A stretch of 64,000 nucleotides of DNA from Alphaproteobacteria bacterium (GCA_045635565.1 JAZTVX010000054.1:568-64567); one strand, 5' to 3'. Positions 44,016-47,867 are shown, numbered from the stretch's first letter. The notes: a model not told the origin generated them from the sequence alone. Program-made: numbers and translations.

Positions 44016-44024
44016 TGATATAAT
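44016..44024 (+). promoter_or_regulatory. Extended -10 element (TGATATAAT) 7 nt upstream of the pentapeptide-repeat gene ATG
   Basis: TG-A-TATAAT at 44016-44024. There is no SD before ATG 44032, which implies a leaderless transcript. Confidence 0.4.
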
Positions 44025-44031
44025 ACCTAAC

Positions 44032-45633
44032 ATGATAAAGGAAATAAAAAGACCACAAAGAAAGGAAGCATCGGAAAAAATTACCGATGAGGATATGATT
44101 TATTTTTCTCTGGGTATTGATACACGAGAATTTGTTTTGCCTTCGCAACGGGGGGATTATCATACGGATTTTCGGGCTGTTCAGCTGGTTGAAAATGTTC
44201 GGCGTGGAAAACGAATGAAAAAAATGGATTTTTCAGGAGTTAATTTAAAAGGTGCTGATATTTCTGAGGGACATTTTGAAGATTGTAATTTTAAAGGGGC
44301 TGTTTTTTATAAAACAGATGCCTCATCGTGTGATTTTACGGGATGTTGTTTGGATGAAGCCTATATTCAAGATAGTGATTTTGACGGGAGTGACTTCACT
44401 CATGCAACCTTTAAGCGTGTTTTTTCAAAAAACAACAATTGGGAAAGAGCTTTTTTAGACGAAGAAGCCAGCCGATATTTAACGGTTTTGGAAAAAATCA
44501 TTCGATTGATTGAGCAAGGTAAAATCGATATTCATACATTATCTAAATCGGATTTATTGCATTTAGACATCCGTCGTTTGGATTTTTCAAAAATTGATTT
44601 AGAAGATTTGGATTTGTCTATGTTTGCGTTGGATGGTATCAACTTATGTGGCACATATATCGATCCTAAACAATTGATGAGTTTGGAAGGGTGGAATAGT
44701 TATTGTTTAGATTTGCGTAAGACAAAGGAAATGACTAGGGCCCGTTTGTGTCGTCGTATCATGACGGAACAGGAAGAAAATCTGCGTCAGTATGCTCAAC
44801 GTCAACAAAAAGTCGATAAAACCATTCATACGAAAAAATTAAAAAGACCATCTGTCAAACAGGAAGGTACAGCTGATAATCGGGCATGGGGTTTGGAAAA
44901 AGTTCGTCCGGAATTTCTCAAAGAGGAACAATTACGGGCACAGGAAGAAAAGAAACGTTTGCTGGAAGAACAAAATCAGACAAAAGAATTTATGTCTTCT
45001 CGACAGTCGGAACATGAAAAATTGCCACTTTCAGATGAACGTTTGTCAGTTGATAAAACAGGTCAAAACAATCCGAAAAGTATGTCTGATGCCATCAATC
45101 ATTCAAATGACAAAATGTTAAAACAATCGACGGAAACAATGATAAAGACAGTTGTTCCAGATACGTTTGTTGTTGAAAAAAATGATTTAAAAGTGGTTGA
45201 ACAAGAGTTAAACAAAAGAAATAATAATGATAATCAATTTGTTGAAATAAAATATGAAAACAATGATTCTTTTGTGTATAAAAACATCAGACAAGATCCG
45301 GTTAAAATCGTATCACATGAAGATAGACATGATGATTTGAATATTCCTGTTCCTCAACCCAAAAAACAGTCAGAAGAAATTGTGCTGTCGAATGAAGCAA
45401 CTGTTCAGCCCATAATATCAACAACACCGTATCCTTATTTTCTGGAAAAGAGTGAACCAATTGAAGAAATGCCTAGAAAGGCAGAAACGGATGATGATGA
45501 AACAGTTCACGATGTGTTGAGTTCGGGCTTTTCTTATGAAGAAATGACACAGGTTTTGCGGACACAGGGACCGTTGAAAGTAACGAGTAAATTGCCTAAA
45601 GGGCGAAAAGCACGTACGAAGATGAAAGGATAA
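44032..45633 (+). CDS. Pentapeptide-repeat protein with a long charged low-complexity region and a basic C-terminal tail
   Basis: 5-residue periodicity FSGVN LKGAD ISEGH FEDCN FKGAV FYKTD... (from nt 44224) and LHLDI RRLDF SKIDL EDLDL. C-terminus KLPKGRKARTKMKG. The ORF track starts at 43975. Confidence 0.75.
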   Translation: MIKEIKRPQRKEASEKITDEDMIYFSLGIDTREFVLPSQRGDYHTDFRAVQLVENVRRGKRMKKMDFSGVNLKGADISEGHFEDCNFKGAVFYKTDASSCDFTGCCLDEAYIQDSDFDGSDFTHATFKRVFSKNNNWERAFLDEEASRYLTVLEKIIRLIEQGKIDIHTLSKSDLLHLDIRRLDFSKIDLEDLDLSMFALDGINLCGTYIDPKQLMSLEGWNSYCLDLRKTKEMTRARLCRRIMTEQEENLRQYAQRQQKVDKTIHTKKLKRPSVKQEGTADNRAWGLEKVRPEFLKEEQLRAQEEKKRLLEEQNQTKEFMSSRQSEHEKLPLSDERLSVDKTGQNNPKSMSDAINHSNDKMLKQSTETMIKTVVPDTFVVEKNDLKVVEQELNKRNNNDNQFVEIKYENNDSFVYKNIRQDPVKIVSHEDRHDDLNIPVPQPKKQSEEIVLSNEATVQPIISTTPYPYFLEKSEPIEEMPRKAETDDDETVHDVLSSGFSYEEMTQVLRTQGPLKVTSKLPKGRKARTKMKG

Positions 45634-45635
45634 GT

Positions 45636-47867
45636 ATGGTTATACGGTTAGCACCTGAAAAACAATCGACCCGTGACTGTTTAAAGTGGTGGTCATGGCG
45701 TGCCTTGGTCGGTATTGGTATTTTATGGGGACTGTTGCTTGTTTTTGTACCGTTTTCTATGGTAATTTCCCGTTATTTTACGATTGAGTCTTGGTCGATT
45801 ATTCCTGATTATTTGTCATTTATTATTAACGGTGATTTGATGTTGCCGTTTCGCAATTACGGGCAATGGATTGTTGATTATTTATTCAATGAACCTCGTC
45901 ATTATAACTGGTACAGTTATTTTGCATGGCGAATTATGTTGGTGCCTACGTTTTTGTTTTTAGGCTATGAATTTCTTTTATTTCATCAAAATCCTCATCA
46001 CTTGTTTCCCCAACGTTTTGGAACGGGACGAGAAGCTAATGACGAAGATATTGAAAAAATGGGCTTGTTTTCGGGTAAACATTTATTATTGGGTGTTTTT
46101 GGTAAGAAAAAAATCAAAATGCCCGATACTCGTTCTGTTTTTTGTATCGGTTGTCCGGGTTCAGGAAAAACAATGGGTGTTGTTATTCCCTCTATATTGG
46201 AGGATAAAATATCAACGATGATTGTGCACGATCCTAAAGGTGAAATTGCCAAGTTGACCAGTGGATATCGTTCAACTTTGGGACCTGTATTTATGATGAA
46301 TTGGATGGGAAAAGATAATCTCGAAAAAAACATTCGATGGCCGTCATGGAATCCGATTGGAGGTGAAAACCTGCCTCCGTTAAGTGGTGGTCGGGAAGGA
46401 TATATTGATGCATTAGTTTCGTATTTGATTCCGGATGGACCATCAGGAACGGATCCTTATTGGGTTAAAACAGGACGAGGGTGTTTAACAGGGTTAACTG
46501 GTTATTTATGTGGAAAAGTGGATCAGGCTCAAGCCAATGATTATTTTCTTTCTCGGATTCAGAATGGCATGATGGATGAAGATGATTATGATATTCTATT
46601 AACGTATTATGAATCAATGCGTGATTTTCCGGAGGTTTTAAAAGCCAAAGAATTGGCTCAAAATCGTGAAATTACAATGGAAAATTATTTACCCATCGGC
46701 ACATGGAATTTGATTCCGGACAGTTGGCGGGGTCATGATGCATGTTTTGCAATGTTGTTAGATATTATCAATAACTCACAAATTCAATTTAATGCAGAAA
46801 TATCCCGTCGGCAAAGAGAACAGGATATCAGTGCAATTGGTTTAGATGCTTGGCAAATGATTTTTGAAAACGTTGTTTTGGAGACAGCGTATTACGGATA
46901 CGGTCGTCGTACATTGTTGGAATTAAATCAGGTATTGAGTTTGCCTGATAAACAGAGAGGTTCTGTTGTTTCCATGGCAATGTCCGGTGTGAACATTTTT
47001 AAAAATTCCGCTGTTCGTTGTCGTACGTCCATGAATGATTTTAACTATAATCAATTACGAGGGATGAAACATCCTGAAACTGGTGAATATCAACCGGTTA
47101 CCATTTACATGTCTGTTCCGTACGAGGATTTAAAATCATCGGTTTTGTTAAGCACTTTATTTATAAATATGTCATTGCAATACTTAATGGAGTTTGGTCC
47201 TAATCAGGGTGGGGCAGGCCCCGCATCCGTTGGTTTCATATTAGATGAATTTCAACATATGCCATCGGTTGACGGCATAACAGATGGTATTATTTTTGGA
47301 CGGACAAAGCAAAATAAATTTTTGGTTTGTGTACAAGATTGGCATCAGATTACGGCAAAATATGACCAAGAAACAACAGATGTGATTATGAGTTCATCGG
47401 CAGCCAAAATTATTAAGCGTCAAAATAATCCTCAAACACGTGCTCCGCTTTTAAAAGGGATTGAAACGCTGACCAAAGTGGTCATATCTTATGAATCAAG
47501 GCGTGGTTATTTTGATTGGTCGGGAGATATGTTTCCAAATTCTTCTTCCAAGTGGATATGGAAAGATTTTAATCTATATCATCCGATAAAGAAGAAAATA
47601 AAGACGCAATCTGACTCTGTTATCGGGGGCTCTGGTATTTTGAGTATGGCTCAAGATAAACAACTCGTTTTATATGCGGGTCATTTAGACAGACCGATTA
47701 ACAAGGTTAATTCTCCGCTATGTTTTAAATATCCTGAATACAAGGCCTTGACGGCTCTACCACCGGCAACAACAATTCCGGATTATATTCAGAGAGAAGC
47801 TGATGAGGTCGGACTTATCAGTCAAATGCATGTTTCCACGATAACGTTGTCAAATAATGCGTCATAA
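45636..47867 (+). CDS. virD4: Type IV secretion coupling protein (VirD4/TraG family)
   Basis: Two N-terminal TM helices, Walker A GCPGSGKT followed by VVIPSIL, HDPKGE, VGFILDEFQHMP and VQDWHQITAKYD. The start is 2 nt after the upstream stop. Confidence 0.85.
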   Translation: MVIRLAPEKQSTRDCLKWWSWRALVGIGILWGLLLVFVPFSMVISRYFTIESWSIIPDYLSFIINGDLMLPFRNYGQWIVDYLFNEPRHYNWYSYFAWRIMLVPTFLFLGYEFLLFHQNPHHLFPQRFGTGREANDEDIEKMGLFSGKHLLLGVFGKKKIKMPDTRSVFCIGCPGSGKTMGVVIPSILEDKISTMIVHDPKGEIAKLTSGYRSTLGPVFMMNWMGKDNLEKNIRWPSWNPIGGENLPPLSGGREGYIDALVSYLIPDGPSGTDPYWVKTGRGCLTGLTGYLCGKVDQAQANDYFLSRIQNGMMDEDDYDILLTYYESMRDFPEVLKAKELAQNREITMENYLPIGTWNLIPDSWRGHDACFAMLLDIINNSQIQFNAEISRRQREQDISAIGLDAWQMIFENVVLETAYYGYGRRTLLELNQVLSLPDKQRGSVVSMAMSGVNIFKNSAVRCRTSMNDFNYNQLRGMKHPETGEYQPVTIYMSVPYEDLKSSVLLSTLFINMSLQYLMEFGPNQGGAGPASVGFILDEFQHMPSVDGITDGIIFGRTKQNKFLVCVQDWHQITAKYDQETTDVIMSSSAAKIIKRQNNPQTRAPLLKGIETLTKVVISYESRRGYFDWSGDMFPNSSSKWIWKDFNLYHPIKKKIKTQSDSVIGGSGILSMAQDKQLVLYAGHLDRPINKVNSPLCFKYPEYKALTALPPATTIPDYIQREADEVGLISQMHVSTITLSNNAS

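Follow-up and report, generated by a model that had tools for sequence, protein, structure and literature searches.

A conserved gene pair for a pentapeptide-repeat protein and a VirD4/TraG-family coupling protein in uncultured gut Alphaproteobacteria

The locus and its two products

The stretch of DNA considered here, 64,000 nucleotides (nt) from an Alphaproteobacteria bacterium (GCA_045635565.1, JAZTVX010000054.1:568-64567; in the following, the window, meaning this whole 64-kb stretch, which also serves as the reference for coordinates), contains within positions 44016-47867 of the plus strand two genes that run in the same direction and encode, in this order, a pentapeptide-repeat protein (PRP; 44032-45633, 533 amino acids (aa) from the ATG) and a type IV coupling protein (T4CP; 45636-47867, 743 aa). 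The PRP stop codon (TAA, 45631-45633) is followed by GT and then by the T4CP ATG, and the pair is flanked by lspA, which is divergent, and by gltX. An earlier note, made from the sequence alone, had read this arrangement as an orphan coupling protein translationally coupled to a PRP; the two open reading frames (ORFs), the distance of 2 nt between them, the flanking genes and all the quoted motifs were confirmed in the window. The central result is that a PRP homologue lies directly before the T4CP gene in the window and at 31 further distinct loci from metagenome-assembled genomes (MAGs) of gut Alphaproteobacteria and from metagenomes. The features of the locus, with the evidence for each, are as follows; dN/dS is the ratio of non-synonymous to synonymous substitution rates.

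43987..44015, plus strand: T-rich tract before the -10 element, between the lspA start (CAT 43984-86) and the promoter; conserved in related loci
44016..44024, plus strand: extended -10 element TGATATAAT, 7 nt before the PRP ATG; conservation of TGnTATAAT-N7-ATG
44032..44901, plus strand: PRP N-terminal conserved domain, aa 1-290; Pfam, AlphaFold, Foldseek, invariant columns, dN/dS
44902..45546, plus strand: PRP linker, aa 291-505, variable, acidic (net charge -16) and of low complexity; length variation, poor alignment, dN/dS
45547..45630, plus strand: PRP basic C-terminal peptide, aa 506-533, net charge +9, no D or E, ending in PLKVTSKLPKGRKARTKMKG; motif conservation, dN/dS
45625..45630, plus strand: Shine-Dalgarno (SD) sequence AAAGGA for the T4CP, inside the last two PRP codons (Lys-Gly); junction comparison
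45636..47867, plus strand: VirD4/TraG-family T4CP, 743 aa; Pfam PF02534, PF10412 and PF12696, AlphaFold, Foldseek, dN/dS
45636..46010, plus strand: T4CP N-terminal membrane domain, aa 1-125, with transmembrane helix TM1 at aa 19-48 and a probable TM2 at aa 95-118; Kyte-Doolittle, AlphaFold helices 7-45 and 102-118
46149..46172, plus strand: Walker A, GCPGSGKT, aa 172-179; G177 and K178 invariant and T179 nearly so in 38 homologues
46392..47024, plus strand: enlarged all-alpha domain, aa ~253-463; AlphaFold helices 253-463, conserved motifs
47229..47249, plus strand: Walker B, VGFILDE, aa 532-538; D537 invariant and L536 nearly so in 38 homologues

The assignment of the second product to the VirD4/TraG type is borne out by the hidden Markov models of Pfam, T4SS-DNA_transf (PF02534) matching with E = 8.7e-34 and 117.6 bits (cutoff 20.1), TrwB_AAD_bind with 36.7 bits (20.5) and TraG-D_C with 34.2 bits (22), and by the predicted fold. 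The AlphaFold model (pLDDT 83.8) comprises a helical N-terminal membrane domain, a RecA-like nucleotide-binding domain and a large all-alpha domain, and its Foldseek matches are led by Cagbeta (8DOL, E = 4e-17), TrwB (1E9S, 1e-11) and DotL (6SZ9, 4e-6), with HerA next. Besides Walker A, the motifs VVIPSIL, HDPKGE, VGFILDEFQHMP and VQDWHQITAKYD are present, and the ATPase is predicted to be intact. As to the two N-terminal transmembrane helices proposed earlier, TM1 passes the Kyte-Doolittle threshold (maximum 2.33) and provides the N-terminal anchor; the second helix (aa ~95-118) is less hydrophobic, falls below the threshold and is supported by the helix in the AlphaFold model. The N-terminal membrane domain is the least conserved part of the protein, and the all-alpha domain ranks among its best conserved regions, with the motifs DPYW..GR, ANDYF and GY.RR.L.E..Q....P..QR.SV.S.A..G...FKN kept in at least 95% of the sequences.

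With the curated NCBIfam models for VirD4/TraG/CD1115 the T4CP scores 42-104 bits against cutoffs of 250-728 (bits/cutoff: PRK13897, 79/728; PRK13850, 44/681; PRK13876, 67/674; PRK13880, 42/586; CD1115, 104/250). As these equivalog cutoffs are widely missed, the protein is a real but strongly divergent T4CP, belonging to a distinct subfamily. That the subfamily is also compact is suggested by the small number of matches obtained with an exhaustive phmmer search of 1.84 billion representatives (2306 at E<=1e-3, 105 at E<=1e-30); a word-indexed search gave 1089 matches.

The first product matches Pfam Pentapeptide (PF00805) with E = 9.6e-14 and 51.1 bits (cutoff 20.2) and is tripartite, a constrained N-domain being joined by a nearly unconstrained acidic linker to a constrained basic C-terminal peptide. 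The N-domain is made up of KRPxxK and LPS motifs, a beta-helix (~60-140), a helix (144-161), a repeat block (170-215) and a further helix (218-260). Residues 66-135 are 14 in-register pentapeptides, and in the AlphaFold model, built on an alignment of 35 sequences, pLDDT exceeds 90 at aa ~40-150, with a confident beta-helix of ~4-5 coils (aa ~60-140). Both of the pentapeptide blocks claimed in the earlier note are present, but the confident model extends to the first, the second (aa 175-215) being modelled at a pLDDT of 56-79. Thirty columns are invariant across the 35 homologues, and the first 40 residues, although poorly modelled, belong to an N-terminal part in which K11, F25, L36-P37-S38, Y43 and D46 are invariant. 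Foldseek assigned to this head a generic right-handed quadrilateral beta-helix (Rfr) fold only, with NP275 (root mean square deviation 2.0), MfpA and Qnr as best matches and AlbG and NleL also listed; the top 50 consist of pentapeptide-repeat and other beta-solenoid proteins plus HalA and SV2A, and CagZ is not among them.

Across genomes the PRP varies from 324 to 572 aa in length, and the difference sits in the poorly aligning linker. The C-terminal sequence KLPKGRKARTKMKG is present as previously quoted; its motif, [KR][VI]xx[KQ]...K.K.K(G), is kept in close and intermediate clades, and the distant clades have basic tails of another form. With a net charge of +9 and no D or E in the last 28 aa, the tail agrees in charge with the substrate signals of VirB/D4 systems. 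Some T4CPs of the subfamily, such as P0104 (L042 10001-13042) and P0200, carry a C-terminal extension of ~300 aa which is extremely acidic and rich in aromatic residues (EWQDFDNEWQDFEEEWSDFDD..., ...DFFSDFDEDFEELDD), that is, of a charge opposite to that of the PRP tail, so that these extensions would complement a basic partner tail. The idea that long homologues are PRP-T4CP fusions was discarded, as Pfam found no pentapeptide domain in nine proteins of 900-1170 aa, the extensions of which are acidic low-complexity tails.

Conservation, selection and expression of the pair

The 31 further loci are made up of 26 of the 26 genome loci that have upstream DNA and of five deeper lineages at 32-38% T4CP identity. 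The earlier note had made its proposal depend on PRP homologues being syntenic with the T4CP, and the adjacency is indeed kept in the window and at all these loci, down to 32% T4CP identity. The pair is found in at least six chromosomal contexts and is co-inherited over 32-100% T4CP identity, the two genes being separated by 0-21 nt. At 38% (P0104) it lies between FTHFS and glgP, with a 1-nt overlap of PRP and T4CP; at 37% (P0099 and P0101) the order is pepN, a gene of unknown function, PRP, T4CP and a flavodiiron protein; at 32%, the mutL-pgi-lspA synteny before PRP-T4CP is still intact in P0204, and in P0213 the pair follows carD...hsp33-recX-truA..., the layout being unchanged with a PRP of only 25% identity. 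The unknown ORFs that accompany the pairs of the distant clades recur neither in the window nor in the other contexts, and a third conserved component was therefore rejected, as was one further PRP candidate (P0184, on a 1.5-Mb contig), which is not adjacent to a T4CP and is similar at the level of the repeats only.

The relatives of the T4CP come from uncultured Alphaproteobacteria represented by gut MAGs of roe deer, yak, sheep, buffalo, rabbit, pig and Hadza humans; an RF32-like placement of these bacteria is conjectural. Among the genome loci, L001 comes closest, at 96% identity. A contig of 167 kb deposited as 'uncultured Lactobacillales bacterium' (L021, CAYPVK010000003.1) also carries the mutL-pgi-lspA-PRP-T4CP block, and that record is probably a mislabelled or mis-binned MAG. 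The nearest T4CPs on plasmids are only 25-26% identical over 87-91% of the query (Erythrobacter aureus NZ_CP031358, Sphingosinicella p1). They share the Pfam families and the architecture of plasmid VirD4/TraG/TrwB T4CPs with the protein described here, but their genes occupy the classical place, coming last, after VirB11, in the MobA...VirB2-VirB11 operons of Erythrobacter and Sphingosinicella megaplasmids, whereas here a PRP lies upstream, with no VirB gene, relaxase or plasmid; beside plasmid T4CPs no PRP like this one was found, matches being limited to generic cyanobacterial and archaeal PRPs. Judging from the genomic comparisons, the operon would be ancient, vertically inherited and core-chromosomal in a broad clade of uncultured gut Alphaproteobacteria.

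Selection was estimated from the comparison of the window with L001, at dS of ~1.1-1.3. With a dN/dS of 0.025-0.030, against 0.043 for pgi and 0.052 for gltX, the T4CP is under stronger constraint than the housekeeping enzymes encoded next to it. Within the PRP, the values of 0.041 for the head, 0.45 for the linker and 0.042 for the tail delimit the three parts, the linker being 39% and the N-domain 90% identical between the two genomes; the basic C-terminus pointed out in the earlier note is, thus, conserved and under purifying selection.

The expression signals proposed for the pair were also upheld. The extended -10 element at 44016-24 ends 7 nt before the first ATG, and no SD precedes this ATG; most other genes of the window carry AGGAG-type SDs, and only five TGNTATAAT sites occur in 128 kb (both strands). 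The arrangement TGnTATAAT-N7-ATG is found in the window and in 26 of 26 close loci with upstream DNA, and it is invariant while the sequence of the 7-nt spacer varies, a pattern that lends strong evidence to a predicted leaderless bicistronic mRNA starting at ~44031-44032. This form of the promoter is not found in the distant clades P0099, P0101 and P0104, and it is absent from a scan for sigma-70 promoters of two hexamers because it has no -35. The T-rich tract contains a block, CATC-T8-ATTTC-T6, which is kept in related loci, including two whose upstream gene differs (L002 and L003), and it may act as an UP-like element. If lspA starts at CAT 43984-86, giving a product of 168 aa, only 45 bp separate the divergent start codons of lspA and PRP; gene callers favour an lspA of 151 aa with a start further in, and call a 54-aa ORF between lspA and pgi. 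Elsewhere in the window, parC may give this genome a second leaderless gene: at its start (19190-19214, plus strand), CATATAAT ends 8 nt ahead of the ATG and an SD is lacking.

At the junction of the two genes, the loci have AAAGGA, AAGGGG or AGGA, the stop codon, 1-9 nt and ATG, the exceptions being P0104, with its overlap, and P0213, with a gap of 21 nt. The position of the SD within the last PRP codons supports the translational coupling from PRP to T4CP that had been suspected, and it accounts in part for the conservation of the terminal Lys-Gly.

The DNA around the pair is that of a core chromosome. The window contains accB/accC, glucokinase, rpsA, cmk, rlmN, parC, anmK, miaB, phoH, ybeY, ftsY, mutL, pgi, lspA, gltX, mnmG, nusB, nrdR, glyA, rpiB and priA, besides which it encodes two repeat proteins, one with ankyrin and one with HEAT repeats, and a few unknowns. 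In GC content (0.36-0.37) the pair does not differ from its flanks. In agreement with the earlier note, the 64 kb contain no VirB/Trb/Dot gene and no gene for a relaxase, pilin or integrase; tblastn with the VirB2-B11/MobA set of the Erythrobacter plasmid against the window and the related loci returned T4CP matches only, and no VirB-type, relaxase or integrase gene lies within 10 kb of any related locus. The term 'orphan' applies to the T4CP at the level of the locus only; MAG bins frequently lose plasmids.

Other genes of the window deserve a brief mention. The ankyrin-repeat protein (55824-56573, minus strand) consists of 249 aa, nearly all of them ankyrin repeats, and its C-terminus is not basic, and the HEAT-repeat protein (34561-37341, plus strand; 926 aa) is encoded amid housekeeping genes; these eukaryote-like proteins may point to a life in contact with a host or with protists, and are conceivable substrates of secretion. 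A basic C-terminal signal is not common to other proteins of the window, being found only in a protein of the ROK/glucokinase family (8057-9322, minus strand; Pfam ROK, Glucokinase), the tail of which, KEIHPKKIKTKRRKTKKRSQGRSRQ, has a net charge of +12 over the last 25 aa; no other C-terminus of the window, that of the PRP included, is as basic, and such a tail is odd for a sugar kinase. Between mutL and pgi, an ORF of 245 aa and unknown function (40934-41671, minus strand) matches a SopA-like central domain below the threshold (E = 0.006; 17 bits, cutoff 27); only the closest genome keeps this ORF (76% in L001), other small ORFs taking its place elsewhere.

Possible roles of the pair

Most likely, the PRP is a dedicated partner of the T4CP, either as an adaptor/regulator or as a cognate substrate. 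We tentatively prefer the first of these, namely that the PRP is an adaptor or regulator of the VirD4-family coupling ATPase and that the two form the substrate-receptor module of a secretion channel encoded elsewhere. This preference stems from the fact that the genes are strictly linked in an operon and translationally coupled, that the PRP head is as constrained as housekeeping enzymes, and that the best-conserved surface of the T4CP, the all-alpha domain, corresponds to the site at which CagZ binds Cagbeta (PMC9886983).

In the mechanism that can be envisaged, the extended -10 promoter would give rise to a leaderless mRNA, from the 5' terminal AUG of which the PRP would be translated, and the T4CP would then be translated by coupling, via the SD in the last PRP codons, in a way that favours co-production of the two proteins. 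The T4CP would be an active, membrane-anchored ATPase of the VirD4 family and the PRP its cytoplasmic partner, built as a tethered module in which a folded head (short Rfr beta-helix, second repeat block and long helix) is connected by a disordered acidic spacer of free length to the basic tail. The tail may dock on the T4CP as the positively charged C-terminal signals of VirB/D4 substrates do, while the head would act on the enlarged, strongly conserved all-alpha domain as its adaptor or regulator, in the manner of CagZ on Cagbeta or of DotM/DotN/IcmSW/LvgA on DotL.

Of these two systems, that of Helicobacter pylori is the closer. Cagbeta (Cag5, a VirD4 homologue; PDB 8DOL) is both the best structural match of the T4CP and its best PDB profile match (E = 2e-8), at a sequence identity of ~14%, and CagZ is a small, lineage-specific cytoplasmic partner of Cagbeta, which binds the all-alpha domain and controls hexamerization and ATPase activity (PMC9886983). 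The resemblance between CagZ and the PRP is, however, functional and positional only: CagZ is an all-alpha, U-shaped protein without a disordered linker or a basic tail, whereas the PRP contains a pentapeptide beta-helix, and Cagbeta is encoded in the cag island together with a full type IV secretion system (T4SS), whereas the present T4CP lies in housekeeping DNA. The DotL complex of Legionella (DotL-DotM-DotN-IcmS-IcmW-LvgA; PDB 6SZ9) shares the T4CP fold and is likewise a T4CP bearing dedicated adaptors that widen or gate substrate recognition, but these adaptors are not homologues of the PRP, and the system is of type IVB and encoded with the dot/icm genes.

Several points weigh against the adaptor/regulator reading. 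The secretion context of the pair is itself an assumption, no T4SS channel gene having been found in the window, in the flanks (+-10 kb) of the related loci, which number more than 30, or in 828 kb of related DNA. A folded head followed by a disordered spacer and a basic C-terminal signal would be just as fitting for a translocated substrate, Foldseek shows no fold common to the PRP and CagZ, and the terminal K-G of the tail is partly dictated by the overlapping SD. Finally, there is a single exception to the pairing: P0201 (34% T4CP identity; L041 10001-12139) is chromosomal and in a housekeeping context, between ruvB/thioesterase genes and tyrS, but has no PRP. Upstream of it, L041 9503-9958 encodes an unknown protein of 151 aa with a hydrophobic N-terminal segment (MQDSGASMFETVAAASLSLCLVAGAVAIY).

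The PRP as a conserved cognate substrate, that is, an effector whose tail is the translocation signal and whose head acts in a eukaryotic or bacterial neighbour in the gut, is a rather less probable reading, although the one that comes next. It draws on the conserved tail, which with its net charge of +9 and its lack of D and E resembles the signals of VirB/D4 substrates, on the linker, the disorder of which would ease unfolding and threading, and on the eukaryote-like ankyrin and HEAT proteins of the same window. Pentapeptide-repeat effectors do exist, and the PRP has a weak NCBIfam likeness to PipB, PipB2 and SopA, with NleL in its Foldseek list; PipB/PipB2 of Salmonella and the N-domains of SopA/NleL share the Rfr beta-helix with the PRP, but the homology is limited to the repeat, and these proteins are substrates of type III secretion systems or products of unlinked genes, none of them operonic with a T4CP. 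With cREM-4, a T4SS-linked PRP and candidate rvh effector of Rickettsia (PMC11077975), the homology is likewise limited to the repeat, and its gene is not operonic with a T4CP either. Against the substrate reading, the head is constrained like housekeeping enzymes (dN/dS 0.041), no channel is known, the translational coupling suggests an output in step with the T4CP, and an operon with the T4CP kept over 32-100% identity is more typical of machine subunits or chaperones. Effectors are usually scattered and subject to turnover.

It is unlikely that the pair works without any T4SS, as a stand-alone inner-membrane translocase of the FtsK/HerA superfamily with a PRP regulator, engaged in a housekeeping task such as the handling of DNA or protein at the membrane, in which the PRP might be a nucleic-acid mimic gating the ATPase. 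The more than 30 loci, always in housekeeping DNA and never beside VirB, relaxase or integrase genes, would fit such a task, as would the constraint on the T4CP, which is above that on pgi and gltX, its distance from the curated T4CP equivalogs (79-104 bits against 250-728) and the 25% identity of the nearest plasmid T4CPs. On the other hand, all the hallmarks of a T4CP are kept, the membrane domain included, and no T4CP is known to function without a channel. DNA mimicry, which the earlier note had suggested for the PRP, is left without support, since the confident helix is short (~80-100 residues) and unlike Qnr and MfpA. Indeed, although Qnr, MfpA and AlbG share the right-handed quadrilateral beta-helix, they are dimers of ~8-10 coils that mimic B-DNA for gyrase, whereas the PRP has ~4-5 confident coils, roughly half the length of Qnr/MfpA, followed by helices; with the NCBIfam Qnr/MfpA models it scores 16-20 bits against cutoffs of 240-500, which places it outside that type, and Foldseek identifies the generic Rfr fold only. 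The broader statement that these bacteria have no T4SS channel at all, the T4CP-PRP pair being a stand-alone membrane ATPase system with a core function, gated or targeted by the PRP, is doubtful to a similar degree.

It is very improbable that an integrated conjugative or mobilizable element left the pair behind as a decaying remnant, with the PRP adjacent by chance: degraded elements of this kind sometimes leave isolated T4CP genes, and the nearest plasmid homologues do sit in MobA-VirB2-B11-T4CP conjugation clusters, but strong purifying selection and intact catalytic motifs, core synteny kept across a deep clade with the pairing recurring in at least six contexts, and a GC content equal to that of the flanks, with no integrase, relaxase or repeats, argue decisively against it.

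Novelty and meaning of the pairing

Full-text literature searches found no report of the PRP-T4CP pair or of this chromosomal T4CP subfamily, in line with the statement of the earlier note that the pairing was not recognized as described. Searches combining pentapeptide with coupling protein or VirD4, and those on orphan VirD4 and on the T4SS of RF32/Rs-D84/CAG-239, retrieved nothing relevant, the mentions of pentapeptides referring to DotG and cREM-4. The components belong to known families; what is new is the conserved pairing, its site in the core genome away from channel genes, and the combination of predicted leaderless and coupled expression.

How T4CPs choose their substrates and how they are gated is an open question in type IV secretion. 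The known accessory factors of T4CPs, namely CagZ, the DotL adaptors, TraM and TrwA, are each tied to one system. A subfamily in which the T4CP is inherited and translated together with a partner from a new fold class would offer a compact and tractable model of T4CP regulation. Should the stand-alone reading turn out to be true, this would be the first T4CP shown to act outside type IV secretion, and, if the genomes were to lack a channel, the generally held opinion that a T4CP acts only together with a T4SS would have to be revised and the interest of the pair would rise sharply. For the organisms themselves, the pair marks a large and little-known clade of uncultured gut Alphaproteobacteria, represented in human, ruminant and rabbit samples, in which the slower evolution of the T4CP, compared with enzymes of glycolysis and tRNA charging, implies that secretion, or a new function of the T4CP, is central to their lifestyle.

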